NCBI GenBank assembly: GCA_964502635.1
Contig: CAZCXI010000002.1
Coordinates: 1 to 60,360, forward strand
Source: an uncultured Desulfobacterales bacterium
GTDB lineage: Bacteria; Desulfobacterota; Desulfobacteria; Desulfobacterales; C00003060
Reading direction: 5' to 3'
DNA: 60,360 nucleotides
This document shows positions 11,948-40,478 of the stretch, in pieces (within the stretch, counting starts at the first letter, position 1; every line of letters begins with the position of its first letter). The notes under the pieces are model-generated. The model was given only the letters and a program-made list of their open reading frames with translations. It did no database searches and was not told the origin of the DNA. Position numbers and translations under genes: made by a program.

Positions 11948-12397
11948 ATGAACAAGAAAATACTGGCAGCCATGATTTTGTCATTGGTCACCCTGTCCTG
12001 CTCTGCGAAGAAGCTTCCTGTAACCGGGGGCGACTACGTTGGATCGGATGCGGCCAAAATAGTGGTGATACGGGAGGCTTCGACCAGCAAGTGCCCGGCG
12101 TACGTGAGAGTGGACGGCGAGGTCGTTTGCCCGTTACCCAAAGGCGGCAATTGGTCCAGGTTTACTTTGGAGCCTGGATTGCACAAGTTCGAGGCGTTTT
12201 GCAGCGAGCGCGGAGCCAAGTGGGAGCCGAAGACCTTCAAAATCGAAGCCGGCATCACGCACTACTTCAAGGTCCACCACCGCCTGGCAGAGTTCGCGGC
12301 GCCGAAGATGCGCATCTCACAGATTACAGAAGTTGAGGCGAGCAACCTGATGGGCCTGAAGAAAAAGTACAAGTATGTTCCACCCCGAGGAGAATAA
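11948..12397 (+). CDS. lipoprotein, hypothetical (DUF2846-like by recollection)
   Basis: Signal peptide with lipobox (LVTLSC). 149 aa. Confidence 0.55.
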   Translation: MNKKILAAMILSLVTLSCSAKKLPVTGGDYVGSDAAKIVVIREASTSKCPAYVRVDGEVVCPLPKGGNWSRFTLEPGLHKFEAFCSERGAKWEPKTFKIEAGITHYFKVHHRLAEFAAPKMRISQITEVEASNLMGLKKKYKYVPPRGE

Positions 12398-12534
12398 GAC
12401 TGAAGGGAAGGCAAACTCGGCCGGGATGTCTTTGAGAAAGTAAAGAAATGGCGATTTCAAAAACACTGTTCAGGCAAAGCCCTATGACTCTGACCTAGCC
12501 CAAAGGGCCCGGGTCTTGAGACCGTACTCAACGG

Positions 12535-13389
12535 TTACTTTTCTTTCTTGATTGCCTGCAATCCTTTTTCGATCAGGGCACTAAACCCTTCAATGGTTCT
12601 TTGTCTCAAGAGCCTTCCGTTTACAAATACGGTGGGTGCTCCTCTCACCCCGGCTTTCTTCCCGTCCTGGATATCCTGGCTGATCTTAGCCGATATCTTA
12701 GGATCCTTCATGTCCTTCTGAAGTTTGTCCTGATTCAAGTTCAACTCACGCGTAATTTCCTGGATTTTCTTGTCATTGAGTTTGCTGAAATTCTTAAACA
12801 GGCGGGCCTGAAACTCCCAGAACCTCCCCTGGCTATTGGCAGCAAGGGCAGCCGCCGCGGCCATCCTGGCATATTTATGGTTTCTCAGTGGAAAATTCTT
12901 ATACACCAGTTTCACTTGGTCGGGATACTTAGCGAGCACCTGCTCGAGTAAAGGCAATAGCCTTGCACAGTACGGTCATTGAAAATCGCTGAAAACAGTG
13001 ATCACTACAGGGCCATCGGCCGGTCCCTTGAAGGGAGAATCTGAGACATCGATGTCATAGATGAACTCAATATGAATCTGTTGAATCGTCTTGTCCTTCC
13101 GGCTGGTGACGAAAAGGATGTCCTCCTTCGGGCCGGCCTTGATAGCATCTATATGGTTTCCGACCGTAATGCTGTCTTTCAGCTTGCCGTCCGCCGAGTA
13201 GATAAGGATGTTACTTTTGTCGGTAAGCACAAAAATCCACCGCCCATTGGCCGAAAATGCTACGTCGCATGGAGATTTCTCTAACTTCAATGTGTTGTGT
13301 ACGTCCCATTCGACTGAAGCCATACTGCCACTGATCAGAGCCAGGCCAATAACCCATATCACCGCCAACGTAACGCACTTGCTTTTCAC
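12535..13389 (-). CDS. secreted DsbA-family thiol:disulfide oxidoreductase with predicted selenocysteine (U-P-Y-C) encoded by in-frame TGA at 12976-12978
   Basis: ORFs 12976..13467 and 12535..12957 are in the same frame and separated only by TGA. The junction reads VFSDFQ-U-PYCARLL, which is the thioredoxin-fold CPYC position. RBS AAGGAGGGAGG plus GTG at 13389, followed by a signal peptide. Confidence 0.72.
12933..12975 (-). promoter_or_regulatory. candidate bacterial SECIS region downstream of the UGA
   Basis: On the mRNA: AAGGC-UAUU-GCCUU, then CGAGC-AGGU-GCUCG. The second loop lies about 37 nt after the UGA and contains G and U. The fold was not computed. Confidence 0.35.
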
Positions 13390-13783
13390 GTTAAGACCTC
13401 CCTCCTTGATGGCTGTTAGTAAGGTTGCTAGCAGCATGCACCCTGACAACCCGGACTCCTGGGACATTCGCGCGGGGTCAACGCGGGTGTGGCTGACCTG
13501 GTAGCTTTTGTCACAATGACGGACGCGATGTCAATAAGATAGACGCCACGGGATCTCTTGAGTTTTTCAAAAGAAACCTATATGGTTTTGCCGACAGGCG
13601 GAGCATCTTTCGTGGTCCCGGTTGGACTCAGTACCATACCGGCAGGCAGGGTTGAGCCTTGACAGCCCGGCAACGAACGCCGCCATGTCGGGGACGGCCA
13701 TTTGTATCTCAATGTCTGGCGGGAGCGAATTCGCCCGCCGGGTATTTTGCTTATGTTCAATCCAATGCTGGAAAACAGTAGCT

Positions 13784-14710
13784 ATGCCAACTAGTTATCT
13801 GGAATGGACCGATGAAAACGGCCAGGTTTGTCACCTGGAAGTCGTTGACAAGATTTTTGTTGGACGCAGTTGCCGGGGCATTGAAGAATCAAAACGGATT
13901 ATTGTCAAAGATCCCGGAGTATCCCGGGATCATGCCATCATTAGCATGAGTGGTTCAGGTCTTCAGATCACAGACATGAGCAAAAATGGTGTCTGGATAA
14001 ATGATGTACGGGTGGCGCCCGGTTCATCACAGGACTTGAACCACGGCGATGTCATCCGGGTGGGGAACGCCTTGCTCTATGTGAGATGTCCATGTCCTGG
14101 GCCCATTGAGGCAGATATGGACAGTACGAGGAGCGGGCCCATTGAAATGGTAGTGACCAGCCTGGTTGCTGATGTGAGAGGATTTTCAGCCTTGTCACAA
14201 AGGCAGGATTCGTCTGAGGTCTATGCCTTGATGAAGGATATCTTTGAGACGTTTACAGGGATCGTATGTGATTTCAAAGGCACGATTAAGGACTACGTTG
14301 GTGACGCGGTTTACGCCTTCTGGGATCATGGCTTTCAACCGCGCCAGGAACAGGCTCTGTTGGCCTGCCGCGCAGCGCTTAAACAGTTGAAAACTCTAGA
14401 CCAAATGCGCTCCTCCACGTCGTCCGGCAGATATGTGGCTGTCGAGGGTTTGCCCATGGGGTGGGGGATCACGACCGGCAGGGTGACCATGGCGCACTAC
14501 AGTTCGAGGGTCGCTGATTTGGCCCTGGTAGGAGACGCCACCAATCTGGCGTTCCGCTTGTCCGGTATGGCGAACAAAGATCTTTCCAGTCCAATTGTCA
14601 TCTGCTCTCAGACTGCCGACCTGGTGCAAGACACCCTGTCGCTGGTTGATCTCGGATGCTCCGCTGTCCGAGGGCGCAGGGGGCGGGAACATCTTTACGG
14701 AATCAGGTAG
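13784..14710 (+). CDS. FHA-domain protein fused to a class III adenylate/guanylate cyclase domain
   Basis: FHA-like N-terminus (FVGRS...VSRDHAII...GLQITDMSKNGVWIN) and a cyclase core (SLVADVRGFSALS...VGDAVYAFW). ATG 13784 is internal to ORF 13622..14710. Confidence 0.85.
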   Translation: MPTSYLEWTDENGQVCHLEVVDKIFVGRSCRGIEESKRIIVKDPGVSRDHAIISMSGSGLQITDMSKNGVWINDVRVAPGSSQDLNHGDVIRVGNALLYVRCPCPGPIEADMDSTRSGPIEMVVTSLVADVRGFSALSQRQDSSEVYALMKDIFETFTGIVCDFKGTIKDYVGDAVYAFWDHGFQPRQEQALLACRAALKQLKTLDQMRSSTSSGRYVAVEGLPMGWGITTGRVTMAHYSSRVADLALVGDATNLAFRLSGMANKDLSSPIVICSQTADLVQDTLSLVDLGCSAVRGRRGREHLYGIR

Positions 14711-14779
14711 AAGGGTTGCCAAAGAATAGATGCTAGTGCTATAGGACCCTGCACGAGGCGAGGCTGAGAGACACCACAC

Positions 14780-15418
14780 ATGAAATGCCCGAAATGCCAA
14801 TCTGAACTCTTTGAGAAGGCAAAATTCTGCCCTGAGTGCGGTAACCCAGTCGGATCAGACGAACAGGGTCGGTTCCGTGCGAACACCTTGTCGCCCTTGG
14901 CCGGAGAGAAAATCACGGGCACGAGCAGTGCTGGCGAAGCGTTGGGAACCCCCACTGGCCTAAAACGGACGTTGTCTACGGAACTGGTTGGCACACACGC
15001 TGAAAGGGATACGTCCGTTGAGCTGAATGCATTAGTCGAAAGCCAAACATGGGAAGCGGGAGAAATTATTATACGGAACGGAGACAGGAACAGGGACCTT
15101 CTTTTCCTGATCAAGGGTCATGTTGAAATATTAACGAGCCCGGAGGGTGGGGATCTTGTACTCAATGAAGTTGACGCCCCGCACATCCTCGGAGATATCG
15201 CCTTTCTTTCCGGCCTTCCCAGAACGGCTACCGTCATGGCAAAAACGCACGTGAACGCTTTCGTCTTAAGATATGATAACTTCAAAAAACTGTTTGGAGA
15301 ATTTCCCGAGTGGCTTCATCTTCTCTTAAGTTCCTTTACGAGTGGCATCAAGTCACTTCACTATAAGATCGCAGAACTGGAAGGACAAGCTGAAGCCCTT
15401 AAAAACCGTTCGGACTGA
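14780..15418 (+). CDS. zinc-ribbon plus cyclic-nucleotide-binding domain protein
   Basis: N-terminal CPKC...CPEC, then a cNMP-binding fold (IIIRNGDRNRDLLFLIKGHVEI...GDIAFLSGLPRTATVMA). Confidence 0.8.
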   Translation: MKCPKCQSELFEKAKFCPECGNPVGSDEQGRFRANTLSPLAGEKITGTSSAGEALGTPTGLKRTLSTELVGTHAERDTSVELNALVESQTWEAGEIIIRNGDRNRDLLFLIKGHVEILTSPEGGDLVLNEVDAPHILGDIAFLSGLPRTATVMAKTHVNAFVLRYDNFKKLFGEFPEWLHLLLSSFTSGIKSLHYKIAELEGQAEALKNRSD

Positions 15419-15478: not shown

Positions 15479-16702
15479 GTGGAAACCCCATTGATCGAAT
15501 TCAGGAACGTCAGCAAGCGTTTTGGAGACCGAACGATTCTGGATGACGTGAATGCGCAGATTTTCGAGGGCCACGTAACGACCATTATAGGCAAGAGCGG
15601 AGGCGGCAAGAGCGTACTCCTCAAACACATCATAGGCCTGCTCTCGCCCACTGAGGGAACCATCCTGTTTCGCGGCAGGTCTGTTGATGAGATGAGCAAG
15701 ACGGACTGGGACGTCTTCAGGAGTCAGTTCAGCTACTGCTTCCAGAATAACGCCCTTTTCGATTCGCTTACGGTCTTCGAGAATATTGCGTTGCCGCTGC
15801 AGCAAACGACCAAGTTGACCAAGAGAGAAATTGACAGCAGAGTTATGGAGAAAGTGGATCACCTCGACCTTGCCGAAGTCCCGCACAAATACCCGTCTGA
15901 ACTCTCTGGCGGGATGCAGAAGCGGGTGGCTTTGGCTCGTGCGCTGGTCACAGATCCCAGTATTGTTCTTTTTGACGAGCCCAGCACCGGCCAGGACCCG
16001 ATCAGAAAGAATGCCATCTTGAGCATGATAGTGCAGAACCAGGAAAGGTTTGGATTCACGACCATCATGATCAGTCATGATGTTCCGGACGTCTTCTTCA
16101 TTTCAGACCGCATACTCGTTCTCTACGAGAAACAGATCGTTTTTCAGGGCACGTATAACGAACTTGACCAGTTCGAACATCCCATGGTCGACGAATTCGT
16201 CAAGAGCCTTGAAGGCATCCGGGACGAACTCACTGGTCTGCGTTCAAAAAACAGTTTCATGAAGCTCTATGAAGATGTGAGGGACAAAGCACCGCATGAG
16301 AGCACTATCGTGGCCACGTTTGCCCTTGACGACACGGATCGGCTCAGTGAAGAACTGGGACACACACAGGTACAGGGGATCATTCAGAGCCTCGGGGAAT
16401 GCGTGAACAGACACTTTGGGGATGCCGGGATTTCTACCCGGATCGGAAGAAATCAGATAGCAACGATCCTTCAATGCTCGGACCCGGACAAGGCCGAGCT
16501 TGTGCTGGACGATTTCGCCGGCAAGCTTCAGGACAAGGGATTGGGCGCCTTTGAGGGTGAAGTCCACGCCAACGTCGATTCGCTGAAACCCTATTCGTTT
16601 TCGGTCTCTGTTGGACTGGCCGAAGCCAATCCCGGCGAGGACATACAGGTTACCGCGAAAAGGGCAGGATCGAGGACGAAAAAAATAAAACTGACACATT
16701 AG
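15479..16702 (+). CDS. mlaF: MlaF-like ABC ATPase with a roughly 150-aa C-terminal degenerate GGDEF-like domain (paralog 1)
   Basis: Walker A GKSGGGKS, signature LSGGMQKRV, Walker B IVLFDEP. The C-terminus begins LTGLRSKNSF and has RIGRNQIA where GGDEF would be. Confidence 0.85.
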   Translation: METPLIEFRNVSKRFGDRTILDDVNAQIFEGHVTTIIGKSGGGKSVLLKHIIGLLSPTEGTILFRGRSVDEMSKTDWDVFRSQFSYCFQNNALFDSLTVFENIALPLQQTTKLTKREIDSRVMEKVDHLDLAEVPHKYPSELSGGMQKRVALARALVTDPSIVLFDEPSTGQDPIRKNAILSMIVQNQERFGFTTIMISHDVPDVFFISDRILVLYEKQIVFQGTYNELDQFEHPMVDEFVKSLEGIRDELTGLRSKNSFMKLYEDVRDKAPHESTIVATFALDDTDRLSEELGHTQVQGIIQSLGECVNRHFGDAGISTRIGRNQIATILQCSDPDKAELVLDDFAGKLQDKGLGAFEGEVHANVDSLKPYSFSVSVGLAEANPGEDIQVTAKRAGSRTKKIKLTH

Positions 16703-16734
16703 GGCTATGAAGGACAGAGATAGGGCTGAATGAC

Positions 16735-17550
16735 ATGGGAATGCAATCGTCAGATCCCGAAAAGACTCTCCTGGCGCCTTTTGCGCTACTGGGTCGGACC
16801 GTCACGGGTTGGGTGAATGAACTTGGGGCCGTAGCTATCTTTCTATGGAGGGCCTTTGTCATGATCTTCAGGCCCAGGCAGGTTTCCAGCATCATTCAAC
16901 AAGTCTACTATATCGGGGCCAAATCCACGACTATTGTCATGCTGGTGGCACTTTTTACGGGTATGGTCCTGGGGCTGCAACTCTACTACGCTTTGGTCCA
17001 ATTTGGCTCGGAGGGGGTCCTGGGCACCACCATATCTCTCTCGCTGGTCAGGGAACTAGGGCCCGTGCTGGCGGCCATCATGATTACGGCTCGGGCAGGT
17101 TCCTCCATGGCTACGGAAGTGGGCATCCAGCGTATCTCTGAGCAGATCGACGCCCTCTATACCATGCGCATCGATTCGTTGCGCTACCTGGTAAGCCCTA
17201 GAATTGCTGCCTCGGTCATCAGCTTTCCCCTGCTGACGGCCGTATTCGACCTGATCGGGATTGTTGGCGGATACATCAGTGCTGTCTTGCTCCTGGGCCT
17301 CAACGCCGGCACATACTTACATGGCGTGCAATCCGGCGTGGAGATGAAAGACATCACCGGTGGCTTTGTGAAGTCTATTGTCTTTGCCATTATTGTTTCC
17401 ACGATTTGCTGCTTTCAGGGCTATTTCACGCACATGCGCAGGGATAGCTACGGCGCGAAAGCAGTTGGACTCTCCACCACGTCGGCCGTTGTGCTGTCGT
17501 GCGTCCTTATCTTGGTGGCAGACTATGTTGTGACGTCTTTTCTCATGTAA
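16735..17550 (+). CDS. mlaE: MlaE-type ABC permease
   Basis: 271-aa multi-TM protein with MlaE family conservation (LVRELGPVLAAIMITARAGS). Confidence 0.9.
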   Translation: MGMQSSDPEKTLLAPFALLGRTVTGWVNELGAVAIFLWRAFVMIFRPRQVSSIIQQVYYIGAKSTTIVMLVALFTGMVLGLQLYYALVQFGSEGVLGTTISLSLVRELGPVLAAIMITARAGSSMATEVGIQRISEQIDALYTMRIDSLRYLVSPRIAASVISFPLLTAVFDLIGIVGGYISAVLLLGLNAGTYLHGVQSGVEMKDITGGFVKSIVFAIIVSTICCFQGYFTHMRRDSYGAKAVGLSTTSAVVLSCVLILVADYVVTSFLM

Positions 17551-17556
17551 GGGTCC

Positions 17557-18798
17557 ATGACAAACCATCCCTTGATCGAATTTAGAGACGTCACGAAGCG
17601 CTTTGGGGAGCGTACCATACTGCACAAGGTCAATCTGAAGATCTACGATGGCGATGTAACCACCATCATTGGCAAAAGCGGTGTGGGTAAGAGCGTGCTG
17701 CTCAAGCACATCATCGGGCTCTTAAAGCCGGATGAAGGTAGCGTTCTGTTTCAGGGCGAACCCATCGACAAGATGACGAAGGTTGAATGGAATGAATATG
17801 TCACTCGGATAAGTTACATGTTTCAAAACAACGCCCTTTTCGATTCGATGACGGTCTTTGAAAATGTGGCCATGCCCCTGCGACAAACCACTAGATTGAG
17901 CGAGAAAGAAATCAAAGAGAAGGTCATGGCCCGGGTTGAGCAAACAGAGCTGATGCCGGTGGTGAACAAATACCCGTCGGAGCTTTCAGGGGGGATGCAA
18001 AAGCGGGTGGCCCTGAGTCGGGCCCTGGTGACTGATCCGAAGATTGTCCTTTTCGACGAGCCGACGACCGGCCAGGATTTGATCCGGAGAAATGCTATAT
18101 TGGGGATGATCGCTGAATGCCACAAGAGCTTCGGGTTCACCGCTATCTTGATCAGCCACGATCTGCCTGACGTTTTCTTTATCTCAAACCGCATTATCGC
18201 CCTGGATAAAGGAGAGGTTGTCTTCGAGGGCACACCGGAAGAACTGGAAAACTTCGAACATCCTTTTCTGGATGAATTCATTGATAGCCTGGAAGGATTC
18301 CAGGAACACCTGACCGGCCTTTACTCCAGGCGAAATTTTAGGGTGCGATATCAAAAGCAAATAGGCCAAAAACACGCTGATGAAACATTCGTGCTACTCA
18401 CCTTTTCTGTAGAAGACATAGGACTGGTGGGTACCACTCTGGGGCAAGAAACGTCACAAAAACTGATCAGGGCCTTGGGCATATACTTGAATAAACACTT
18501 TGGCTCGGTAGGGGGATTCTCGACGCGGCAAAACACCGAGCAGTTTGTCACCGTGCTGCCGTTTTCGGATCTCAATGAAGCGCAGAAGATTCTGGACGAT
18601 TTTGCCACGGATCTTGTGGAACGGGGGTTGTCCAATATTCAAACCAGTGCCCAGATTCCTGAAGGAGAATGCTTCGACTTTTCCATCTCTGCCGGGCTGG
18701 CCGAGGGTAAGCAGAACGAGGAAATTGGTTCGGTATTGGAACGGGCCGGGGCTCAACGGAAAACCATTGCACGATTTCAATGTGACAAGCGGAGGTAG
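17557..18798 (+). CDS. mlaF: MlaF-like ABC ATPase with a C-terminal degenerate GGDEF-like domain (paralog 2)
   Basis: GKSGVGKS, LSGGMQKRV, IVLFDEP. The C-terminus begins LTGLYSRRNF and has RQNTEQF at the GGDEF position. Confidence 0.85.
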   Translation: MTNHPLIEFRDVTKRFGERTILHKVNLKIYDGDVTTIIGKSGVGKSVLLKHIIGLLKPDEGSVLFQGEPIDKMTKVEWNEYVTRISYMFQNNALFDSMTVFENVAMPLRQTTRLSEKEIKEKVMARVEQTELMPVVNKYPSELSGGMQKRVALSRALVTDPKIVLFDEPTTGQDLIRRNAILGMIAECHKSFGFTAILISHDLPDVFFISNRIIALDKGEVVFEGTPEELENFEHPFLDEFIDSLEGFQEHLTGLYSRRNFRVRYQKQIGQKHADETFVLLTFSVEDIGLVGTTLGQETSQKLIRALGIYLNKHFGSVGGFSTRQNTEQFVTVLPFSDLNEAQKILDDFATDLVERGLSNIQTSAQIPEGECFDFSISAGLAEGKQNEEIGSVLERAGAQRKTIARFQCDKRR

Positions 18799-18804
18799 AG
18801 GCAA

Positions 18805-19278
18805 ATGCAAAAGTACGCCCATGAAACAGTGGTGGGAATCTTCGTCATCATCGGGTTGGTGTGTGTGGGGTATATGGCGGTAAAACTCGGCGATGTTTCT
18901 CTTTTTGGTGACAATTCATACACGATATACGCGCGGTTCAACTCGGTGTCCGGCCTGAAAGCGGGCAATCCCGTGGAAATGCTTGGGATGGAGATCGGAA
19001 AGGTAGCAGCCTTTAAGCTGGATCAGGATGACCTGCTGGCCATGGTGGAGTTGAGAATCAAGCCAGACATAAAGATCTATGAGGATGCCATTGCCTCGAT
19101 CAAGACAGCCGGACTCATTGGAGACAAATATGTCAGCATCGATCCTGGGGGCGGGGGGGGTCTCCTAAAACCCGGCGACACCATCACGGAGACTGAATCG
19201 CCGGTAGATATTGGGGAACTCATCAGCAAATATGCCTTCGGAGACGTGAAGAAAGAGGAGGTGGAAAAAGATGAATGA
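18805..19278 (+). CDS. mlaD: MlaD (MCE-domain) substrate-binding component
   Basis: N-terminal TM anchor plus an MCE domain (ARFNSVSGLKAGNPVEMLGMEIGKV...GLIGDKYVSIDPG). Confidence 0.9.
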   Translation: MQKYAHETVVGIFVIIGLVCVGYMAVKLGDVSLFGDNSYTIYARFNSVSGLKAGNPVEMLGMEIGKVAAFKLDQDDLLAMVELRIKPDIKIYEDAIASIKTAGLIGDKYVSIDPGGGGGLLKPGDTITETESPVDIGELISKYAFGDVKKEEVEKDE

Positions 19279-19900
19279 GAAGTCAAGAAGCGTGGACATG
19301 AAAAGACAGGTTCTCGCATGGATCATGATGACGGTGATGGCCCTTTTTGCTTTTCCCCTTCAGGTGAGTGCGGGCACGCCGCAGCAAATCATTGAGGCAC
19401 AAGTGAACAAAGTGCTTGATGTGTTGCGGGAGCCCGCCTCAGAGGGCGAATCTGGTAAAAAGGCCAAGGAAGAGAAGATCTGGTCTATATTCGATAGCAT
19501 TTTCGACTATGCCGAACTTTCAAAAATGACCTTGAGTCGGAATTGGAAGAAACTGAATGGCGATCAACAGAAAGAGTTTGAAGAACTCTTTAGAAAGCTT
19601 CTTGGAAATGTCTACATGGACAGAATATTGGCCTACAAGGACGAAAAGGTCGCCTTTGAGAGGGAGACCATGCTTTCAGCGGACAAGGCCGAGGTTCAAA
19701 CCAAAATCCGTACAAGCACCAAGGAGATCCCCATGAACTACAGGATGATCGCCAAGAATGATCAATGGAAGGTGTATGACGTCATTATCGAGGGCGTGAG
19801 CATGATCAAGAACTACCGCAGCCAATTCAATGACATCCTCGCGAAGAAACCTCCCGAAGAGTTACTGAAAATCCTCCGGAAGAAGGTGGGCAACGCATAA
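19271..19900 (+). CDS. mlaC: MlaC/Ttg2D-family periplasmic lipid-binding protein
   Basis: Signal peptide (an alternative start is ATG 19298), a toluene-tolerance-family pattern, and position after mlaD. Confidence 0.8.
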   Translation: MNEKSRSVDMKRQVLAWIMMTVMALFAFPLQVSAGTPQQIIEAQVNKVLDVLREPASEGESGKKAKEEKIWSIFDSIFDYAELSKMTLSRNWKKLNGDQQKEFEELFRKLLGNVYMDRILAYKDEKVAFERETMLSADKAEVQTKIRTSTKEIPMNYRMIAKNDQWKVYDVIIEGVSMIKNYRSQFNDILAKKPPEELLKILRKKVGNA

Positions 19901-19911
19901 ATCCCTGATCA

Positions 19912-20769
19912 ATGACGAAAGGAGCCATATATCCTATGAGACGTCTATCATCTGCCGTTGTCATCATTGTTGTGTTCTTTATCATCTCCGTCTTCAAGCT
20001 GATCCCGTCGTCTTCTCTTGCATGGGCGGATGCATGGAATGTTGACAGACAAGAAACAGGGGCCTCGCTGGTAGATCAAGCCGTGTCCACACGGCAGGAC
20101 ATCGCGCTGGCCTCTGTTGACGATGATCCTGCCTCGCTGGACGAGGAAGAGGAAGAAGAAGTCGTGGAGATAGCGGATCCTATCTATTACTGGAACAAAG
20201 GCATGTATCATTTCAATGACAAGCTCTACTTCTGGTTATTTAAGCCCGCGGCAAGGGGATACAGGTGGGCGGTGCCTGAGTTGGTCAGGACGGGAGTCAG
20301 TAATTTCTTCTATAACCTGCGGTTTCCCATCCGGTTTGTCAGCTGTCTCCTTCAGGCCAAGGGAAGTGCGGCAGTGGGTGAACTAGGACGATTTGTCGTC
20401 AATACGACTGCAGGTGTCGCCGGTCTTAGAAATGTAGCCAAAGCCCACCCCAAGTTGAACCCAAGCGAGGAGGATTTAGGACAGACCTTCGGCCGGTGGG
20501 GGATCGGCAGCGGCTTTTATATCGTCTGGCCCTTTCTGGGCCCTTCCACGCTGCGAGAGTCCGTGGGGTGGGTGGGAGATCTGTTTCTGGATCCTGTCAC
20601 CTATGTGGACCCGAGAGAAGCGTCTGCAGGGATCATGGTATACGAAGTGCTGAACAAGGCCTCATTTACGATCGGAGATTACGAAGCCTTGAAGGAAGCG
20701 GCCCTTGAACCCTATGTGGCCATTCGTGACGCCTACGTCCAACATCGGAAAAAGAAGGTCGAAGAGTAG
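19912..20769 (+). CDS. mlaA: MlaA/VacJ-family outer-membrane lipoprotein
   Basis: The VacJ-like core (DPIYYWNKGMYHFNDKLYFWLFKP...NLRFPIRFVSCLLQ...NTTAGVAGL) is typical of MlaA. Confidence 0.85.
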   Translation: MTKGAIYPMRRLSSAVVIIVVFFIISVFKLIPSSSLAWADAWNVDRQETGASLVDQAVSTRQDIALASVDDDPASLDEEEEEEVVEIADPIYYWNKGMYHFNDKLYFWLFKPAARGYRWAVPELVRTGVSNFFYNLRFPIRFVSCLLQAKGSAAVGELGRFVVNTTAGVAGLRNVAKAHPKLNPSEEDLGQTFGRWGIGSGFYIVWPFLGPSTLRESVGWVGDLFLDPVTYVDPREASAGIMVYEVLNKASFTIGDYEALKEAALEPYVAIRDAYVQHRKKKVEE

Positions 20770-20847: not shown

Positions 20848-21567
20848 ATGATCTTTTTTGGCCAGACGGATGTTGGTCTGAAACGGGCCAAGAACGAAGA
20901 TAGCTTCGTTGTGAAGCCTGAACTGGGTCTTTGCCTTGTGGCGGACGGCATGGGTGGGGCTGCTGCCGGGGAACTGGCGAGCCACCTGTTTGTTGAGACC
21001 GCGGTGGAGGTGTTTTCGAGATCCCCGAGTCGATCTGAAAAGGAGACCGCTGACCTTACTCAAAAGGCTTTTCAATGGGCAAATGAACGAATCCTTGATC
21101 ACGTCGGGACGGAGCCTCGGCACAAGGGCATGGGCTGTACAGCAGAATTGGTGGCGTTTTGTAAAGACAGTTTTGTTGTAGGACACGTAGGAGACAGCCG
21201 CACCTATCTCCTTAGAAACGGGCAGCTGAAGCAATTAACCGAAGATCACTCTGTTGTCCAAGACCAGATAAACCGGGGCATCATCAGCCCGGCCCAAGCA
21301 AAAAACCATCCGCTCAGAAACGTCATACTTCAGGCAGTGGGGGTTAAAGAAAAGATAGAGGTGGACGTCATGACAGGCAAAGCACTTGCGGGCGACCTCT
21401 TTCTACTTTGCTCGGACGGACTCACGGATATGGTTGATGACACATCGATTCAGGAAACGCTTTCCGTGACCGGCGCTGTCCCTGCAAAGGCAAACAACCT
21501 GATTGAGCTTGCAAAATCCGCTGGCGGCCACGACAATATTACCGTGGTCCTGTCTCAAGTAGTCTGA
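20848..21567 (+). CDS. PP2C-family Ser/Thr protein phosphatase
   Basis: GQTDVGLKRAKNEDSF, ADGMGG, GDSR, LCSDGL and GGHDNITVV motifs. Confidence 0.9.
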   Translation: MIFFGQTDVGLKRAKNEDSFVVKPELGLCLVADGMGGAAAGELASHLFVETAVEVFSRSPSRSEKETADLTQKAFQWANERILDHVGTEPRHKGMGCTAELVAFCKDSFVVGHVGDSRTYLLRNGQLKQLTEDHSVVQDQINRGIISPAQAKNHPLRNVILQAVGVKEKIEVDVMTGKALAGDLFLLCSDGLTDMVDDTSIQETLSVTGAVPAKANNLIELAKSAGGHDNITVVLSQVV

Positions 21568-23240
21568 TCATCGGCGATCTCGTCCTCCGGCGCGTTGTTG
21601 TCCTCCGACGCGTTGTCGGTTGCCTGAAATTGTTTCCGCATGAAGTCTGAAAGATTGACCCTGTCGTATCTCTGAGTCAAATCCTGTCTGAGGGCAGTCA
21701 TGTCCTGTAGAAGTTCTCCTGCGCTTTGATATCGGAGCCGCTTGTCTTTCTCCAGACATTTCATGATGATGTGATTCAACGCGTCCGGAACATCCTGCCG
21801 GCAGTCTGTTATGGGTGGTATCTCCCTTTCCGGGATGGATCTGATGGCTTCTATATCACTGGTGAATTTATAAAGTCTTTTGCCTGAAAGCATTTCATAA
21901 AACACGATCCCCAGGGCATATAGGTCTGCCTGGTGGTTCACCGTTTGCCCCAGGGCCTGTTCGGGAGACAGGTAAGCAAGCTTTCCCTTGATAACGCCCG
22001 AGTGGGTCAGGCTCGGTTCAGAACTTGTCTTCGATATTCCGAAGTCGCTTATTTTTACTTCTCCTTGAAATGAAATCAGAATGTTCTGAGGACTGATATC
22101 TCGATGGACAATGTTGAGGGCCTCCCCTGACTTGTGGTCTTTTTTCGAGTGGGAGTACTCCAGCCCCATAGCCACTTGAGAGGCAATAAAAACGGCTTGG
22201 TCGACGGTCATTTGGTCCTGAAGTTTGGCCATCACCTCGCCCAGATTCTTTCCCCGGACATACTCCATGGCAATAAAATAAACGTTTGCGATTTTACCAA
22301 AATCAAGGACCTGGACCACGTTCGGGTGCTGCAACAAGGCCGCCAATCTCGCTTCTCGGATGAACATGTTGACAAAATCCGAATTCTCAGCAAGGTGGGG
22401 CAGAACCCTCTTGACAGCCACTGTCTTGCGAAAACCGTCCTGGCGTTCGTAGCCCGCCACGAATAGTTCAGCCATCCCCCCTTGTGCCACCTTCTTTTCC
22501 AACAAATAGGGACCCATCCTGGTCATACCCTCCATGGCCTTTTGTGCCTTTAGGGCTCTTGCCATGGACAGGCGATCCATGGTCACAAGTATGGCTAACA
22601 ACAAGACAAGGCCGAAAACCACCCCGAAAACAAAAACGGTCCTGTACCTGCTCAAAGAAGCATGCAGGTCGGCTGCCGACAGGGCCAAATAAACCTTGCC
22701 TATTCTTACGCCCGAATAGACCACGGGAGCTGAGAACCGAACGGTTTTTTCATTCTTGACGGACACGCCCTCCTCAACGGAGACCCCCTCAATGGTCCCT
22801 TGGTAGCTTTCATGTCTTAAGGAAGGCAGCGTCCGGTTGACCAATCTCGCGTCCGTGTGCGCCACGATCTTATCCTGGTGGTCCACGATGGCACAAAATA
22901 TCAGGCCTGCACTGCTTTCAAGCTCGCCGATGGCCATGTTCAGGGATAAAACATCATTTTCCAAAAGGGATGGGCCGATTTGAGCGACAAGATTATGGGT
23001 CCGTTCCAATCCAACCTGGTAGAAATCGTCCTTCAGGCCTTTCACCGTCTTTTGGAGCGTCACATAGCCGGCCAGGCAGCCGACGACCCAAATCAAAAGA
23101 CACAGGTTGATTCGTTTCCTGTTGCGCTGAATCGCGTTTATTCTGAATACCCCCCTGCCAAACTTCAGGAAGATATTCGTCGAGAAATCCTTGACCCACA
23201 ACATAGTCGTTGAAGCTGTTTCGCGAACCGTCATGATCAA
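21555..23240 (-). CDS. Hanks-type Ser/Thr protein kinase with an N-terminal extracytoplasmic sensor domain
   Basis: C-terminal kinase domain (VAVKRV, HRDISPQNIL, DFG, SPEQ). The N-terminus has TM, a roughly 150-aa sensor, then TM. It is convergent with the PP2C gene and overlaps it by 13 nt. Confidence 0.9.
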   Translation of the reverse strand: MIMTVRETASTTMLWVKDFSTNIFLKFGRGVFRINAIQRNRKRINLCLLIWVVGCLAGYVTLQKTVKGLKDDFYQVGLERTHNLVAQIGPSLLENDVLSLNMAIGELESSAGLIFCAIVDHQDKIVAHTDARLVNRTLPSLRHESYQGTIEGVSVEEGVSVKNEKTVRFSAPVVYSGVRIGKVYLALSAADLHASLSRYRTVFVFGVVFGLVLLLAILVTMDRLSMARALKAQKAMEGMTRMGPYLLEKKVAQGGMAELFVAGYERQDGFRKTVAVKRVLPHLAENSDFVNMFIREARLAALLQHPNVVQVLDFGKIANVYFIAMEYVRGKNLGEVMAKLQDQMTVDQAVFIASQVAMGLEYSHSKKDHKSGEALNIVHRDISPQNILISFQGEVKISDFGISKTSSEPSLTHSGVIKGKLAYLSPEQALGQTVNHQADLYALGIVFYEMLSGKRLYKFTSDIEAIRSIPEREIPPITDCRQDVPDALNHIIMKCLEKDKRLRYQSAGELLQDMTALRQDLTQRYDRVNLSDFMRKQFQATDNASEDNNAPEDEIADDQTT

Positions 23241-31631: not shown

Positions 31632-32379
31632 GGTGGCTTCCTTTGAGCCGTCGTACAACGGGCTGTGTTGGGCACGCTGCAATGGTTTCCCTACAGGTTC
31701 GGAACACAGAAGTCAAACGGCCGGGCAACTGAACACAACCCCTTTGCCGGCGCTGCCGGGGGTTCACGGTCCAGACCCCTTCAAACCGCTCCATAGGTCC
31801 TCTCGTCGGTCGTGTAAAGACCTTTATTTCCAGAAAAACAAAGTGTTAGGATATCACGTCATATTTAGTTACAATTCTTAGAAAACAGAAGAAAATGCGA
31901 GAAAATAGACGTTTTCTCAAACCGGGACAGATCTATACATGCACAACAAAATGCGCTATGGCTCTAAAATACTTCGACATAAGGGGGCTCGCAGGAAAAG
32001 GTGAGTGATAGAGCCTTTAAGAGCAATAGCGACATAACACAGTTCAATATTCGGATGTTATGACATGTTGAAAACTATTTCACGAGCCGGCCAAGACTCC
32101 CTCTTTTTCGGTTTGACAATGGATCGTTCCTGTTCTACAAAGCGCACATCCTTTCAGGGTGCGAGGCCGCACTTTTTGAATTTCTAATCAAAATCCAATA
32201 TTTTGGCGTTTTTTTAGACAAACGATGCGTCGACCCGGGATGCCTTATGCGCAAGATGCATGAAGACGATTGCGTGAACACCGGGCAATCGGGCAAGGCG
32301 CCCTCACCGTGATTTGGCATTGTTAATCGTTATGAAGGCAACAAGTATTTCAGAAGGTTCCCAGACAGTGAGTGACGCC

Positions 32380-33720
32380 ATGCAAGCCGCTTGGAATCGA
32401 GCCAAAACCGGCATCCACAAGAAGGTCCCTCACCACAACTTCATGCTCTGGGTTGAACCGCTGGCGTATGTCGCCCAGCGAGAAGAAGAATTTGTCCTAA
32501 GTTGTCCGACGGTTTTTTTCAAGAAGTGGCTCACGCGTCACTATCTCGGTCTGATCGAAAGAGAGCTGGAAGGGGCGTGTGGGAGACCATACCGTGTCAC
32601 TTTCAAGATTTCTGATGAGCCCAATGGAAATGGTTATCATGGGCACGAGGATGACCAACTCTTGCTTCCCCACGTCACCGACCGGCAACCCCAGCTGTCT
32701 GCACTTCATGCTGATTTCACATTCGATCAATTTGTCGTGGGAATATGCAACGATTTTGCCTACAACGCAGCCCTCTCATTGGCCTGTTCGAAAAACGTCT
32801 GTCACAATCCCCTCTTCTTGTTGTCCAATATCGGCCTAGGGAAAAGCCACCTTTCCCAGGCCGTAGCAAACCACATCTTGAGAAGTGACCCCACCCTCCG
32901 GGTTTGCTACATCACGGCTGAGGAGTTTACCAATGCCATGATTTGTGCGCTCCGCCATGACAGGATCGAGGAGTTCAAGGACAAGTATCGAAGGCAGTGC
33001 GACGTGCTGCTGTTGGAAGATGTGCAGTTTCTGAGTGGCAAGGTGAAGACACAGGATGAAGTGGCCTTCACGTTGGATGCCCTGTTGGAAGCCAAGAAGA
33101 AACTGATTTTTACAGGGACCTATCTGCCTCGTGACATCCCAAAGATGGATGAAAAACTGGCGTCACGGCTTTCGGCCGGTATCATTTCGAGCATTGAGTC
33201 TCCGGACCACGACACCCGTGTGCGGATCCTCAAGAAAAAAGCTTCGTTGAAACAACTCGATATTTCGGAAGATGTCGTGCATTACTTGGCGAGCAAGCTT
33301 ACCCAAAATGTGAGGCAACTTGAAAGCGGCTTGATCGGCGTTGGGGCTAAGGCCTCTTTGCTGAATCTCCCCATAGACACCGAGTTGGCCAAGAGTGTTG
33401 TAAAGAACATTGTGCGGCGGTCGCGAGAGATTACCATAGAACGGATTCAAGAACTCGTGTGCAAGTATTACAAACTTACTATGGAGGAATTCCTGTCGCG
33501 CTCCCGTAAGCGCCGTATTGCCCAGCCGAGGCAGATTGCCATGTATTTGGCACGACGCTATACAGACAAATCCCTCCACACCATCGGCCGAAGCTTCAAT
33601 CGGTACCACGCCACCACGTTGCATGCCGTAGGAACGGTGGAGAGACTGATTCGAGAAAACGGGCCTGTTCAGAAGCAGGTAGAGTTCCTTTCCACGAGGC
33701 TGGAATCAGGCGGTCTCTAA
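32380..33720 (+). CDS. dnaA: chromosomal replication initiator DnaA
   Basis: AAA+ core (NPLFLLSNIGLGKSHL, LLLEDVQF) and the C-terminal DNA-binding signature (IAQPRQIAMYLARRYT...GRSFNRYHATTLHAV). Alternative starts are at 32332 and 32314. Confidence 0.95.
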   Translation: MQAAWNRAKTGIHKKVPHHNFMLWVEPLAYVAQREEEFVLSCPTVFFKKWLTRHYLGLIERELEGACGRPYRVTFKISDEPNGNGYHGHEDDQLLLPHVTDRQPQLSALHADFTFDQFVVGICNDFAYNAALSLACSKNVCHNPLFLLSNIGLGKSHLSQAVANHILRSDPTLRVCYITAEEFTNAMICALRHDRIEEFKDKYRRQCDVLLLEDVQFLSGKVKTQDEVAFTLDALLEAKKKLIFTGTYLPRDIPKMDEKLASRLSAGIISSIESPDHDTRVRILKKKASLKQLDISEDVVHYLASKLTQNVRQLESGLIGVGAKASLLNLPIDTELAKSVVKNIVRRSREITIERIQELVCKYYKLTMEEFLSRSRKRRIAQPRQIAMYLARRYTDKSLHTIGRSFNRYHATTLHAVGTVERLIRENGPVQKQVEFLSTRLESGGL

Positions 33721-33754: not shown

Positions 33755-35275
33755 ATGAACAGGTTCCTCTATCCGGCCAAGGCCATCGTCCTGGGACTGT
33801 TTACAACACAGATCCTGGCCACCCTGCACGTGTATCTTTCCGATGCCGACCTCTACCGCACCGTCACGGCTATCACAGAGGCGGGCTATTTCCCTATTCC
33901 CAACCAGCATGTCCTGCACACGCTCAAGGAATTCGGACCTGCATTTTTCGGAGGGTGGTTCTTCACCCTGAGCCTTGGCGCAGGGCTGTCTGTCGTTTCT
34001 GTTGTCTGCGCCTGGATCTGGGATCGAATCCTGGGCCGAAGCCGGGCTTCGCTGATACTCATTGGGCTCCTGTGGTTGGGCGCGGTTGTCGCCGTCAATA
34101 GCCACGGCTTTTGCCCTATGGTCTCCTCCTATTTCCTCGCCACCCCCCTTGTGGTCTTTGCATCCGCCTTGATGTGGATGCCGAAACAGAGTGCGAAAAA
34201 GGGTTGGTTGAACAGGCTTGCCCTGTTGCTGCCCATCGTCCTTCTGACTATCATATGGTCGGCTCATGCGAACCGCTTCTTGTTCCTGGATCTTCGAGAC
34301 TTCCTCCTGTTATCCAACCCCATCGGAAAAAAGGTCGATGATTTTTACTACCGTTATACCCTTTACCCGGCACAGGTGTTCAAGTCCTTGGAGCAAAGAA
34401 CCCTCAAGACGTGCCGTCTGACAGCCATCGAGGGCCAGGCCGTTGGCCGACGCATGGAACGTGTCTTGATCGACTATGACTATCTGCCTGTGTCCCAAGA
34501 GGCCCCCGTTGATCTGGAAGTCGCGGGATCGGCGAACGCCCTCCTCTTCAAACATCAGGGCAAGGCCGTTCTTCGAATCTCCTCCAAGACATTTTTCCTG
34601 CACCCCGAACAGACCCTGAGGCGGTTTTCTGCGGCAACGGACAGGCACGCCCTCTTTCGACAAGCGACCATGGTCTGCCTGCTGATCGGCTTTCCTGTCA
34701 CCTTGTACATCATTGTCTTTGCCCTGTTTCAGTTCGTGTTGGGATCTTTCCTTGGTCCAACACGCTCTCCGGTCGTTGCCGGGGTTGTCTGTTTCCTCAT
34801 TGGCCTGGCTTTACTCGTCCCCCTGCATCTTGCGAGGATGCCGGCACACGATCAAACCGATTTGTCTAAGGCCTTGGATTCTAAGTCCTGGCAGCAAAGG
34901 GTCGCGGCCCTCAGAACTGTGGTAAACCGAAGGCTGGATATTGCGGACTTTCCGGTCTATCGCCGCATACCGGCGAGCCCGAACGTGCCCGAGCGCTACT
35001 GGTTGGCAAAGACGTTGGGGATAAGCCGGCACCCGGAGACCTATCCAGACCTGCTGGCTTTGCTGGATGATCCCCATCCCGACGTGGTTTCCATGGCATT
35101 TTGGGCCTTGGGGCAGAGAGGAGACAGGCGGGCCATCAAGGAGATCTTGAGGAGGATAAAGGCGTCCGATCACTGGTACAACCAGTGGTATGCCTACAGG
35201 GCCATGAGGGGCCTGGGGTGGAGGCAAGAACGTTCCGGCTTTCGGCCTACACGTCTTGGAATACCGTGGCAATGA
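33755..35275 (+). CDS. polytopic membrane protein with C-terminal HEAT-like repeats
   Basis: Multiple TM helices. The C-terminus has [23 protein letters not shown] and [17 protein letters not shown]-lyase-like repeats. Confidence 0.6.
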
Positions 35276-36095
35276 AGCAACCGGTACCGCCACCGTCTCC
35301 AATGCCGGCCTCGCCATCTGCTGGAGGGGGTCCCTGCGCAGTGTTGGGCTCCGGGGCAGAGATCTCGCCGCCCGGATAGGCTGCCCCGTTTGACACGCCT
35401 ACGGCGTCCAAGTCCAGGCCCGCGCTTCCAACGGTCGGGTAAGGGTCGTAAATGACATGCCCGCTGGTGTCCTCGTCCGCGCCGTCGCCAACGATGTCGA
35501 TCAGCCGTACGTAGCTGACTTGGTCGAGCCCCACATCTTCCAGGTCAAAGGGGGTGCCATATCCTTGCCTGTACTTGCCGGCAAAACCAGCGATGTTCGT
35601 GGGATCCACGGCACCGAATCCGGCTACAGGCTCCGGGGTTAACGAGTCATTATCGAATCGGACAAAGGTTTTGCCGTCTGCCGATACCTCCACATAGGCC
35701 AATTCCAGGAACGTGTCGCTGAAGGCGTTTTCAAACACGGCAAAATCCCATCCTTCCCCATTTTCAATGGGCGTATTAAAGGTCATGGTGATCTGCCCGC
35801 CCCGGCCCAGAGACACCACGTCAGAAGCGGTTCCAGACGCCTTCCCAACCGCTTCTTCAGGCGTTTGAAAGGCGGCGTCCACCTCTGAGCCGGGCTCGTA
35901 ATCTTCCCACCCTGTGGCCCAGGCCACAAAGGCTGAATCATCCTTGTCTATGGCCGTGGAGCCGGGCTCCCCTGCGGCCGGGGGATAAGGCCCGGCCATG
36001 GCCGACATCGACAAGAACGGTGCAGCCAGCAAGAAGGCACACCAGAAAACCCATCCTAAACGAAGCCGGCGTCTGGTTTTCTTCAGAAGATCCAC
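35247..36095 (-). CDS. secreted protein of unknown function, last gene of the cobalamin-riboswitch operon
   Basis: Signal peptide ([12 protein letters not shown]). The C-terminus is [15 protein letters not shown]. The start overlaps the stop of the TonB-dependent receptor gene. Confidence 0.6.
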
Positions 36096-38131
36096 GTTAT
36101 GCCTCCGAAATAGTTGCGAGTCGGCATGGGATAATAGGTCTCACTAAAGGCAATCGTTGAGTACAATTCATCAAAGATATTATTCACCCCAACAAAGCAC
36201 TCCACCCCTTTGTAGCGGTAGGTCAGCTTGCCATCGAAAACCTTGTAGCGGTCCAGGACATCGAACCGGTTGTTGTCCTGGTCATTACCGTCAAATCTTG
36301 GGCCCACATAGGTCCCGGTCAGAGATAGCACCAGCGGCTCAAGGATCTGCCATTCCAGCCCGACCGATGCCTTATGCTCCGGAACCAGGGGGACCGTGGT
36401 GTCTTTGTCTTCAAACTTGGCTTCCGTGTAGGTGTAGTTACCCCAAACATAGAGGGACTCCGTCGCATAAAGCCTGACGTCGGTTTCCAGTCCGCGCCGT
36501 TTTGTTGTGTCCCTAAAATTGCGATTCACCCGGGCGTCTTCGTCAAAGAAGATTTCATCTTCCATCTCGATTTGAAAGACGGTGAATGCGACTTCCACGA
36601 GACCCTTAAAACCATATCGCCCTCCAATATCGATGTGGGTTCCCTCCTGAGGTTTTAATTCCTCTTCTGCCTGGGCGAATTCATCCACATTGGGGATGCG
36701 AAAACTCGTGGCATAGCTCGCAAAAATACTCACTTCAGGACTCAGGGTGTAAACCATGCCGGCATCGTAGACGTTATTGGAAAAATTTCTCTTCAATACG
36801 TCCCCGTTTACCCATCTTTTCACATCGCCGAAGAAGAGCAGTTGATCCGTCCGGAAGCGACCGTCGTAGTCGTTGTACCGGTACCCCAAACGCACGCTGA
36901 GATCCTCTGTCACGGACCAGTCGTTGGTCACAAAAAAGCCGATGCTTTCCGCGTCACTGTTCTCACGATTCTTTGCCGCGAGCTCTTCCCTGATGTAGTC
37001 GGTCTTATCATGATCCAAACCGCACTCAAATTGATGCTCGAGCCCCTTGATTTCGTATGCCTTATGATAGGTCACATCCAAGTTTCTCGTGTCTTCATCG
37101 ATGTTGCTTGTTTGATCCGCTTTCGTGATAAGGGGACTAAAAGCCAGAATAAAGTCATTGTCCCGAAAACGGTATCCTCGGTGGGCCTTGACATCACCCC
37201 ACCGACCCAGGTCGATTTCAATGCCACCCACGCATCGCTGGTCAGAGAGTTCTCCGAAATCTTCCGGACGATCGGTTGAGGTGCGTCGATCCCTTGAAAA
37301 GAGGTCCTCTTTACTCACAGGGCCGGGCAAGCCGTACCGATCTTCATGGTAGGAAGCGGTTAACGTCAGTTTGACAACATCCCTCCAATTGTAGTCCAGA
37401 TGGCCACCGGCATCCTTCTTTTGAAGGTAGCCGTTATCCCTGTATCCATCGGAATCATAATAATCCGCATTCAAATTAAAACCGAGGTTCTTGACCTGCC
37501 CTCGCTGGGACGCCCGCCCGTCAAAGGTGTCATAGCTGCCGTACGACGTGTACAGGCGTGTCTCAGGCTCTTTTTGTCCTTTCTTCGTAATGATATTGAT
37601 AACCCCGCCAACCGCCCCACTTCCATAGAGCACTGAGCCGGCACCGCGTAAGATTTCTATACGTTCGATCTGATCCAACGGAATCGAAGAAAGATCGGGA
37701 GGCAGCAAATCAGGTGTGTTGAGCTTCACCCCATCAACCATGACAATCACGTTACTCACAAAGCTTTCCCCCATGCCCCGCAGATCGACCCCCGCCCATT
37801 TATCGTGTCCGAAAAAGCTCCGGAGGTTTACGCCAGACTCTCTGCCGAGGAGGTCCACGACGTTGTTGCTCGGTGCCTGCTCAATATCGTCTCTCGTGAT
37901 CACGGTCACGTTTCTCGGGATGTTGCGGACTGACTCTTCAATCCTGGCCGCCGTCACCACGACCTCATCCATTTCAAACCGAGGCTGCTCTCCCTGCCCC
38001 CCACGAACCTGACCCGCGTTCTGAGCGTGGGACACACCCCCACCAAAAAGGACACACGACAACAAGCAGGTCAAGCACCACCCCGCTCGGAGGATGCCGG
38101 CCAGGGCAAGGCGAAACTTCGACATGGACAT
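36083..38131 (-). CDS. TonB-dependent outer-membrane receptor (BtuB-like by context)
   Basis: Signal peptide, TonB box DEVVVTA, plug domain ([15 protein letters not shown]), beta-barrel, and a terminal GGITWIF. ATG 38131 was chosen; the frame is open to 38236. Confidence 0.9.
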
Positions 38132-38235
38132 TGACTTTTCCAAAACAATCTCCCAACCCCGCCTCATAGGTTCTTGTACCCCTTCGCAATCATGTGAAAG
38201 GAGGCCGGATTGATTGGAGGGGGTATGCAGATCCA

Positions 38236-39969: not shown

Positions 39970-40174
39970 CGTGAGCCCCTCCTTCAGCAGTGAAGCCGTC
40001 TGGTTTCTTTCCGGCCTCTCCATAGGCAGCACGACCGCGCAAGCAAAAAGACCTCACCATGAAAAAAAACGGTCCCGGACACCAAAAGGCAGGCAGCGCC
40101 CCACGGGTGGTCGCTCCTGACAAGCGCTTCACGCGATGGGCACAGACAAAACCAGCCAAATATATCCTTTGACA

Positions 40175-40365
40175 GACTCGTAAAAAGTATTTTGCGAACG
40201 ATATTGAGCATTTTGGGAGAAAGGCACTTAAGATGTTTGGCGTTAAAAAATGCTAACTGTTTGAGGGCGTTAGCCCGAGTCTTAGCATTTTAGCTGAACA
40301 TCTTAAGGGCCCCCAAAATGTTCACGGAGTGAGTAAAATCGACTTTTTACGAAACCATCACCCTT
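40175..40365. repeat. about 190-nt imperfect nested palindrome in the riboswitch-to-CDS leader
   Basis: Paired arms are TCGTAAAAAGT/ACTTTTTACGA, CATTTTGGG/CCCAAAATG, CTTAAGATGTT/AACATCTTAAG and AAAATGCTAA/TTAGCATTTT. Confidence 0.5.
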
Positions 40366-40371
40366 TGGGCC

Positions 40372-40405: not shown

Positions 40406-40478
40406 ATGTCCCTTTTTTATCCTCAAACCGTTCTTGTGTCCACAACCCTGGCTCGCGAGGACGTGAGACGCGGTGTCT

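Follow-up and report, generated by a model that had tools for sequence, protein, structure and literature searches.

A TGA codon very probably read as selenocysteine in a split DsbA-like gene of an uncultured Desulfobacterales bacterium

Why should a gene for a thioredoxin-fold protein carry one stop codon exactly where its catalytic nucleophile is expected? This question is raised by a locus in the stretch of DNA analysed here (60,360 nt from an uncultured Desulfobacterales bacterium, hereafter the window). On its minus strand two open reading frames, listed at 12976..13467 and 12535..12957, share one frame. The preliminary description of the locus held that they are separated only by the TGA at 12976-12978 and together form a single DsbA-like selenoprotein gene. 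The first part of this statement was confirmed by the ORF list and by our own translation of the minus strand. Frame 1, read from 13389 to 12535, contains 284 codons and a single internal stop, TGA 12978..12976, whose flanking residues are ...GPVVITVFSDFQ*PYCARLLPLLEQVLAKYP...; the predicted read-through junction is ...VFSDFQ-U-PYCGQISPLLEQVLK. The parts of the predicted gene are as follows.

13389..12535, minus strand: predicted selenoprotein gene, complete, with GTG start, 284 codons including Sec138, and TAA stop at 12537..12535
13397..13407, minus strand: strong ribosome-binding site AAGGAGGGAGG, ending 7 nt upstream of the GTG, read directly from the DNA
13318..13389, minus strand: predicted Sec-type signal peptide, residues 1-24 (MKSK, a hydrophobic core and S-M-A, recognized by inspection), with putative cleavage after it
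13045..13317, minus strand: N-terminal domain, residues ~25-115, two four-stranded beta-propeller blades
12565..13038, minus strand: DsbA-fold catalytic domain, residues 118-275, delimited by Pfam, PDB profile search, Foldseek and invariant columns
12976..12978, minus strand: UGA codon 138, putatively read as selenocysteine, residue 1 of the U-P-Y-C redox motif
12967..12969, minus strand: Cys141 (TGT), resolving cysteine of UPYC, invariant among orthologs
12634-12636, minus strand: invariant proline P252 of the cis-Pro loop, of presumed cis conformation

The start codon is well placed, as GTG 13389 is the point at which the N-termini of the orthologs align, and orthologs of 279-290 aa match from end to end. 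The codon in question is the commonest ordinary stop of the window, terminating 15 of its 34 long ORFs; we therefore rejected a reassigned genetic code and consider the event to be local recoding.

Does one protein run across the TGA? For the Pfam search of the full-length protein we placed Cys at the TGA position. Two domains were found, and both span it: Thioredoxin_4 (PF13462) at residues 118-275 with 93.4 bits (cut-off 23.2, E 2e-26), and DSBA (PF01323) at residues 130-260 with 76.5 bits (cut-off 25.6, E 3e-21). A search of a collection of 5.8 billion proteins returned 421 relatives, the best of which are full-length, with 40-65% identity from end to end. We aligned first 22 and later 58 full-length orthologs, and the TGA column was occupied by Cys, the first Cys of C-P-Y-C, in 58 of 58 sequences; the second Cys, P252 and other residues of the thioredoxin fold were likewise invariant. 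The expectation that the TGA stands for the N-terminal Cys of the CPYC motif was thus borne out by about 60 full-length orthologs, and the frame downstream of the TGA proved intact and conserved.

The same comparison bears on the possibility of two separate genes, a secreted two-blade protein of 137 residues and a thioredoxin-fold fragment of 140 residues starting from TTG 12957. The ORF list does give this TTG, 18 nt after the TGA, as a start. During Sec decoding, moreover, selenium limitation leads to termination at UGA and a truncated product, and in this locus such termination would release the N-terminal part. The downstream ORF, however, would have no signal peptide and would miss strand beta-1 as well as the two residues of the active site, and the Pfam domain starts at residue 118, 20 residues before the TGA. 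Orthologs end at this point only where the TGA is present. For example, the N-terminal fragment P0083, which is 95% identical and ends at the same place as the window ORF, is encoded on metagenome contig L001, where it is followed by the same TGA and then the same 140-residue ORF. We consider two separate genes very unlikely.

How far is the TGA itself conserved? In a scan of related loci, one genome per species and with the loci translated, TGA was found at the same codon in 32 of 80; these carriers are 36-57% identical to the window protein. Further carriers are the metagenome-assembled genome L082, detected by exact-match DNA search, and contig L001, and with them the range of protein identity becomes 36-95%. 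In total at least 33 species-level genomes carry the TGA. They belong to Desulfobacterales, Desulfatiglandales, Desulfobulbia (Desulforhopalus, Desulfopila, Desulfocapsa), Deferrisomatales and Nitrospirota, and their motifs include UPYC, UPHC, URYC, UKYC, UAYC, UQYC, UVYC and UGYC. The exact halves of the window protein recur in four or more independent SRA assemblies, in each case as separate ORFs of 137 and 140 aa, and the identical TGA is present in independent assemblies from at least five samples. At the nucleotide level the window gene is 96.6% identical to that of L001 and only 81% identical to that of L082, which must therefore represent a different species from the source of the window. 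After the TGA there is no stop or frameshift in comparison with either L001 or L082. Synonymous and non-synonymous codon differences from L082 number 24 and 29 before the TGA and 32 and 39 after it, so the ratio is the same on both sides.

These data can be set against the suggestion that a nonsense mutation, or an assembly or sequencing error, has damaged an ordinary CPYC DsbA-like gene. Such a suggestion may appeal to the gene callers, which, as the preliminary description foresaw, split the gene: every public copy that we examined appears as ORFs of 137 and 140 aa. Close relatives with TGC or TGT at the codon also exist. A pseudogene or an error is nevertheless hard to reconcile with an identical TGA in independent assemblies and in 33 species-level genomes, with a downstream frame free of further lesions at 81% nucleotide identity, and with the covarying RNA structure described below, which is kept only where the TGA is present. 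This reading is extremely improbable and already effectively refuted; judging from the alignments, the TGA is conserved and is not a lesion.

If the TGA is recoded, then we can ask: what signal would direct the recoding? To answer this question we aligned 34 Sec forms over the region that begins 9 nt before the TGA and ends 81 nt past it; this alignment has no gaps. Two hairpins follow the codon on the mRNA, with the arms AAGGC/GCCUU and CGAGC-AGGU-GCUCG that the preliminary description had placed at about +14 and +32.

12951..12964, minus strand: hairpin 1 (AAGGC-UAUU-GCCUU; arms 12964-12960/12955-12951, alignment columns 24-28/33-37), in the spacer between the UGA and the SECIS hairpin
12931..12948, minus strand: hairpin 2, core bacterial SECIS, family consensus CUCGAGC-AGGU-GCUCGAG, alignment columns 40-46/51-57

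In the window hairpin 2 has 5 bp (12946-12942 with 12937-12933), the apical loop AGGU at 12941-12938, and two mismatched outer pairs; in most relatives its stem has 6-7 bp. It is present in all 34 Sec forms tested, 34 nt downstream of the UGA, and absent from the 41 Cys forms tested. The apical loop, 34 nt from the UGA (alignment A2, columns 13-46), reads AGGU in 30 Sec forms and AGUU in the remaining 4. Across these 34 sequences 93% of the cells of the hairpin are paired, and four of the seven pairs show compensatory double changes (G-C to C-G, C-G to U-A, and G-C to U-A). RNAalifold found this hairpin unaided. In some of the compensations a change that alters the amino acid on one arm is matched by a silent one on the other: GAG to CAG (E to Q), for instance, goes with CUC to CUG (Leu). 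Such coupling argues for selection on the RNA rather than on the peptide. Synonymous sites are frozen only in Sec forms, Val being GTG in 30 of 30 against 5 of 19 Cys forms, and Glu being GAG in 27 of 27 against 4 of 8. In the 34 Sec forms the energy of hairpin 2 averages -8.9 kcal/mol, against -1.0 for the 41 Cys forms (Mann-Whitney p = 1e-13).

Hairpin 1 also covaries, less regularly than hairpin 2. All five of its pairs show double changes and 70% of cells are paired at fixed register, the register of the 5' arm being shifted in some lineages. When folding was allowed in free register, the mean was -7.3 kcal/mol for Sec forms and -4.0 for Cys forms (p = 5e-6). For the whole two-helix structure pairing is 84% and falls to 32-46% when the 3' partners are slid by 1-3 columns, and its covariation was reached by none of 500 shuffles. 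The signal is seen only in the comparative analysis: folded as a single sequence, 12910-12985 is not distinguishable from shuffles (z = -0.9). No SECIS-type Rfam match was obtained, either for the whole window at gathering thresholds or for 12400-13500 at E up to 10.

A recent review (PMC13188914, 2026) describes the consensus bacterial SECIS as having an apical loop of 3-9 nt and an upper stem of 4-16 bp. Within the first two positions of the loop there is a G, with G or U after it; the UGA is 16-37 nt away, and the free energy does not exceed -7.5 kcal/mol. Hairpin 2 agrees with these rules in loop size, loop G[G/U], stem length and spacing. In the window its own energy, -6.7 kcal/mol, is just short of the limit, and the region from +1 to +50 reaches -15.1. 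The earlier proposal that this hairpin acts as a SECIS gains support from its conservation throughout the family, its covariation, its loop and its 34-nt spacing.

Could the ribosome read through the UGA without selenocysteine, with Trp or Cys inserted by near-cognate decoding or with the help of a suppressor tRNA, the hairpins doing no more than promoting read-through? The 60-kb window offers this idea some room, as it contains neither Sec machinery nor any tRNA gene, hence no selC. Yet the position is that of the catalytic nucleophile, where only Cys or Sec works, and the loop is of SelB type (G[G/U] at loop positions 2-3) with appropriate spacing. Related Desulfobacterota are, in addition, documented as heavy users of Sec (PMC1794560, PMC1976440). 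The chance that read-through occurs without Sec seems to us exceedingly small.

Thus the TGA 12978..12976 very probably encodes selenocysteine, and the locus would then be one gene for an exported selenoprotein of 284 residues, as the preliminary description proposed for the split DsbA-like gene; the Cys column, the intact downstream frame and the covarying SECIS all support this reading. Translation would start at GTG 13389. Hairpin 2, with its apical loop AGGU 34 nt downstream, would recruit SelB with Sec-tRNA(Sec) at UGA codon 138, and the smaller hairpin 1 would compact the stretch that separates hairpin 2 from this codon. With selenocysteine inserted, translation would continue to the TAA at 12535. 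Cleavage of the signal peptide would leave a periplasmic protein of about 260 residues, composed of the two-blade beta-propeller N-domain and the DsbA-fold domain. There the selenol/thiol pair of Sec138-Pro-Tyr-Cys141, opposite the cis-proline loop, would perform thiol-disulfide (selenosulfide) exchange on periplasmic proteins.

The comparative signal was also expressed as a covariance model, R1, built from 31 Sec forms, with the window and its two closest relatives left out.

12928..12981, minus strand: whole R1 match (UGA, hairpin 1 and hairpin 2), 63.5 bits, E 1.5e-19

This match (12981..12928) is the only significant one on both strands of the 60 kb, the next best having 10 bits, and it supplies the covariance-model check of the TGA region suggested together with the first proposal. 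Other held-out full-length Sec forms score 61-69 bits, the 5'-truncated L052 scores 55.5, and most Cys forms score 8-30.

It is possible to trace the loss of selenocysteine in the Cys forms. Locus L033 (3409-3462) has a TGC codon, yet retains a perfect hairpin 2 (UUCGAGCAGGUGCUCGAA) and scores 49.7 bits with R1; by its sequence, this element is a fossil SECIS. Hairpin 2 is decaying in the close Cys forms L034, L087, L088 and L089. A partial hairpin was also seen to be retained in the Cys form L040. On a rough neighbour-joining tree no Sec form lies outside the subfamily that has the N-terminal domain, and at least nine changes between Sec and Cys are needed. Since the hairpin is the same everywhere, a single gain of Sec followed by repeated replacement of Sec by Cys would be the simplest history.

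What kind of protein does the gene encode? The AF2 model that we used is that of the closest full-length Cys ortholog, P0001 (65% identical; alignment of 58 sequences), not of the window protein. It has a mean pLDDT of 94 and consists of an N-terminal helix, two blades, and a thioredoxin fold into which a helical domain is inserted. The lone helix at residues 3-20 lies in the region of the predicted signal peptide, whose A24 is invariant in the ortholog alignment. Seven to eight beta strands (E43-109, pLDDT >92) form two four-stranded blades at residues ~40-110. In the PDB profile search residues 27-122 of the family profile matched the YVTN beta-propeller 1l0q (1.9e-11). The N-domain sequence of the window protein matched the WD40-like blade repeat of the Nostoc WRAP propeller 2ymu (7e-14), and also 6r5x, 6r5y and 6r5z, which are fragments of two or three blades of that WRAP-type repeat that assemble into oligomeric propellers. 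The only Pfam family found in the N-domain was DUF6476, near the cut-off, in 26 of the 58 orthologs. The strands of the model and the matches to 1l0q and 2ymu bear out the earlier remark that the protein has an extra N-terminal domain of about 110 aa.

For the catalytic domain, PDB profile matches included 3gyk, the C. diphtheriae DsbA/TsdA, BdbD and ScsC (E 1e-15 to 8e-27). Foldseek with the P0001 model agreed, giving 3gyk, 3eu3 and 4gxz with TM about 0.8 on target length. The thioredoxin fold, the inserted helical domain, the CxxC-type motif and the cis-Pro loop are all present in the model. From these matches and the model we take the mature protein to be a selenol/thiol oxidoreductase of the periplasm that combines a DsbA fold with two N-terminal blades, its export being predicted from the signal peptide. 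Selenocysteine at the attacking position speeds up thiol-disulfide exchange. Such faster exchange would suit an isomerase or a reductase in an anoxic periplasm; judged by its sequence, the enzyme may be an oxidase, a reductase or an isomerase.

The role of the N-domain may be approached by analogy. Given the precedent of 6r5x, 6r5y and 6r5z, in which blade-repeat fragments assemble into oligomeric propellers, the domain could conceivably serve as a self-assembly module, three or four chains completing a propeller of six or eight blades and the enzyme thus becoming multi-headed. We offer this tentatively and regard it as rather doubtful. If it were true, the protein would resemble DsbC or ScsC in function, as a multi-headed isomerase or reductase of periplasmic disulfides that depends on selenium; the N-terminal folds of DsbC and ScsC are unlike the two propeller blades. 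Oligomerisation would then follow a principle undescribed for enzymes of this class and restricted to anaerobic Desulfobacterota and Nitrospirota.

The genomic neighbourhood was examined for partners of the gene. It appears to stand alone: a small lipoprotein-like gene at 11948-12397 (plus strand) converges on it, an FHA-cyclase gene at 13622-14710 (plus strand) diverges from it, and UvrA and Rex lie beyond. Pfam searches of 40 window ORFs revealed no sel genes, DsbB, VKOR, DsbD or CcdA within the 60 kb, and a scan for same-frame ORF pairs split by TGA gave no second convincing selenoprotein gene in the window. Across 82 loci no neighbour is conserved family-wide, and no redox partner is adjacent or conserved nearby. 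Only the Desulfobulbia loci have a common context, formed by PhoH/YbeY-PdxJ and by genes of a release factor and a GlpC-like protein. In L026 (1317-2660) and its equivalents the DsbA-like gene is preceded by the release factor and GlpC-like Fe-S/CCG oxidoreductase genes and followed by those of PhoH and YbeY-PdxJ. The GlpC-like Fe-S oxidoreductases, too, form a known selenoprotein family.

Several other features of the window were observed in passing. The divergent FHA-domain adenylate/guanylate cyclase gene is followed by one for a zinc-ribbon cNMP-binding protein (13622-15418, plus strand, for both). There is also an Mla-type lipid transport operon (15479-20769, plus strand), in which two ABC ATPases flank MlaE, and MlaD, MlaC and MlaA follow; each ATPase (15479-16702 and 17557-18798) carries a GGDEF domain at its C-terminus, a fusion that looks unusual. 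Genes of a Ser/Thr kinase and a PP2C phosphatase lie at 20848-23240. The presence of dnaA with its N-terminal, ATPase and C-terminal domains (32314-33720, plus strand) suggests that the window may be near the chromosomal replication origin. An operon on the minus strand (35247-40671), which comprises the genes of a DUF4465 protein and a TonB-dependent receptor plus a third ORF, is headed by a cobalamin riboswitch (40465-40671, 89.8 bits) and probably serves B12 uptake. At 43775-45644 (minus strand) the YchF GTPase is matched in its C-terminal domain only, by a 230-aa ORF that adjoins an IS200/Y1-type transposase-like gene (325 aa); ychF may be disrupted here, or its start mis-set. Finally, a 324-aa protein with weak WD40/beta-propeller matches (46386-47360, minus strand) is encoded beside OmpA-like beta-barrel genes (47400-48056 and 48540-49187), and no link was found between this protein and the N-domain of the selenoprotein.

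What does the locus mean for annotation and for further study? All public copies that we examined are split into a 'hypothetical protein' and a truncated 'DSBA' ORF, and no NCBIfam model covers this subfamily; a widespread selenoprotein subfamily, with at least 33 species-level genomes, therefore appears to be systematically mis-annotated. Our alignment and the covariance model R1 could correct this. The natural series of Sec forms, Cys forms and the Cys form with a fossil SECIS (L033) could be used to study the loss of Sec and the decay of the RNA element. The protein joins a small number of candidate selenoproteins of the periplasm, and since the cultured Desulforhopalus sp. IMCC35007 carries the gene (L041; NZ_SWCN01000003.1, about 313.4-314.3 kb), its role in envelope thiol-redox chemistry under anoxia is testable. 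The current understanding of Sec decoding is unchanged by these results, and the two-blade N-domain as a possible oligomerisation module is the only mildly novel angle.

It remains to compare the gene with known systems. Deltaproteobacteria are the richest users of selenoproteins, and thioredoxin-fold UxxC selenoproteins named DsbA-like, DsbG-like or 'thiol:disulfide interchange protein' have been catalogued since 2005-2006 (PMC1088965, PMC1794560, PMC1976440, PMC13188914). The preliminary description was right to call Sec-containing DsbA-like proteins a known class, as it is a listed family in three of these sources (PMC1088965, PMC1794560, PMC13188914). As UxxC DsbA-like and DsbG-like selenoproteins have been known since 2005, the window gene is real but ordinary; arguably it represents a distinct, currently mis-annotated subfamily. 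Our literature search found no paper linking PF13462 with selenocysteine and none on DUF6476.

The closest catalogued family is 'DsbA-like protein form 1' (PF01323, UxxC), described by Zhang and Gladyshev from the Sargasso Sea in 2005 and included in PMC13188914. At the Pfam level the sequence of the window protein, which JGI names 'protein-disulfide isomerase', falls within this definition. The two have in common a DSBA domain above the gathering score, Sec in place of the N-terminal Cys of CxxC, a SECIS just downstream, and widespread Cys-containing homologs. In contrast, the Sargasso family was assigned to COG2761 (FrnE-type; NIP15863.1) and the window protein matches Thioredoxin_4 (PF13462) best. 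The signal peptide and the two-blade N-domain are also distinctive, the catalogue entries that we consulted describing neither. Judged by its assignment, the COG2761 family may be a different branch of DsbA.

The DsbG-like selenoprotein is represented in the 2026 review by NCBIfam NF041057 (PMC13188914), the Rcas_1661 family thioredoxin-like (seleno)lipoprotein. Likeness to it extends to UxxC and an exported thioredoxin fold, and it is the best NCBIfam match of the window protein (E 1e-17, in the catalytic domain). However, the score of 64.3 bits is below the curated cut-off of 190, and the N-terminal region is unmatched; membership was rejected on the score.

With the consensus bacterial SECIS (bSECISearch; the SelB-binding hairpins of E. 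coli fdhF and Moorella) hairpin 2 shares the small loop with G[G/U] at positions 2-3, an upper stem of 5-7 bp and a position 34 nt from the UGA, within the range of 16-37. It differs in that its spacing is close to the upper limit of this range, the spacer is occupied by another conserved hairpin, and Rfam gives no match.

The nearest solved structures are BdbD of B. subtilis, ScsC of Salmonella, Proteus and Caulobacter, alpha-DsbA1/2 of Wolbachia and the Silicibacter oxidoreductase 3gyk. All share with the window protein the DsbA fold with an inserted helical domain, the CxxC-type motif and the cis-Pro loop, but all use Cys and are only 20-28% identical in sequence. Proteus and Caulobacter ScsC also have an N-terminal oligomerisation module; theirs is a helical trimerisation stalk, in contrast to the propeller blades of the window protein.
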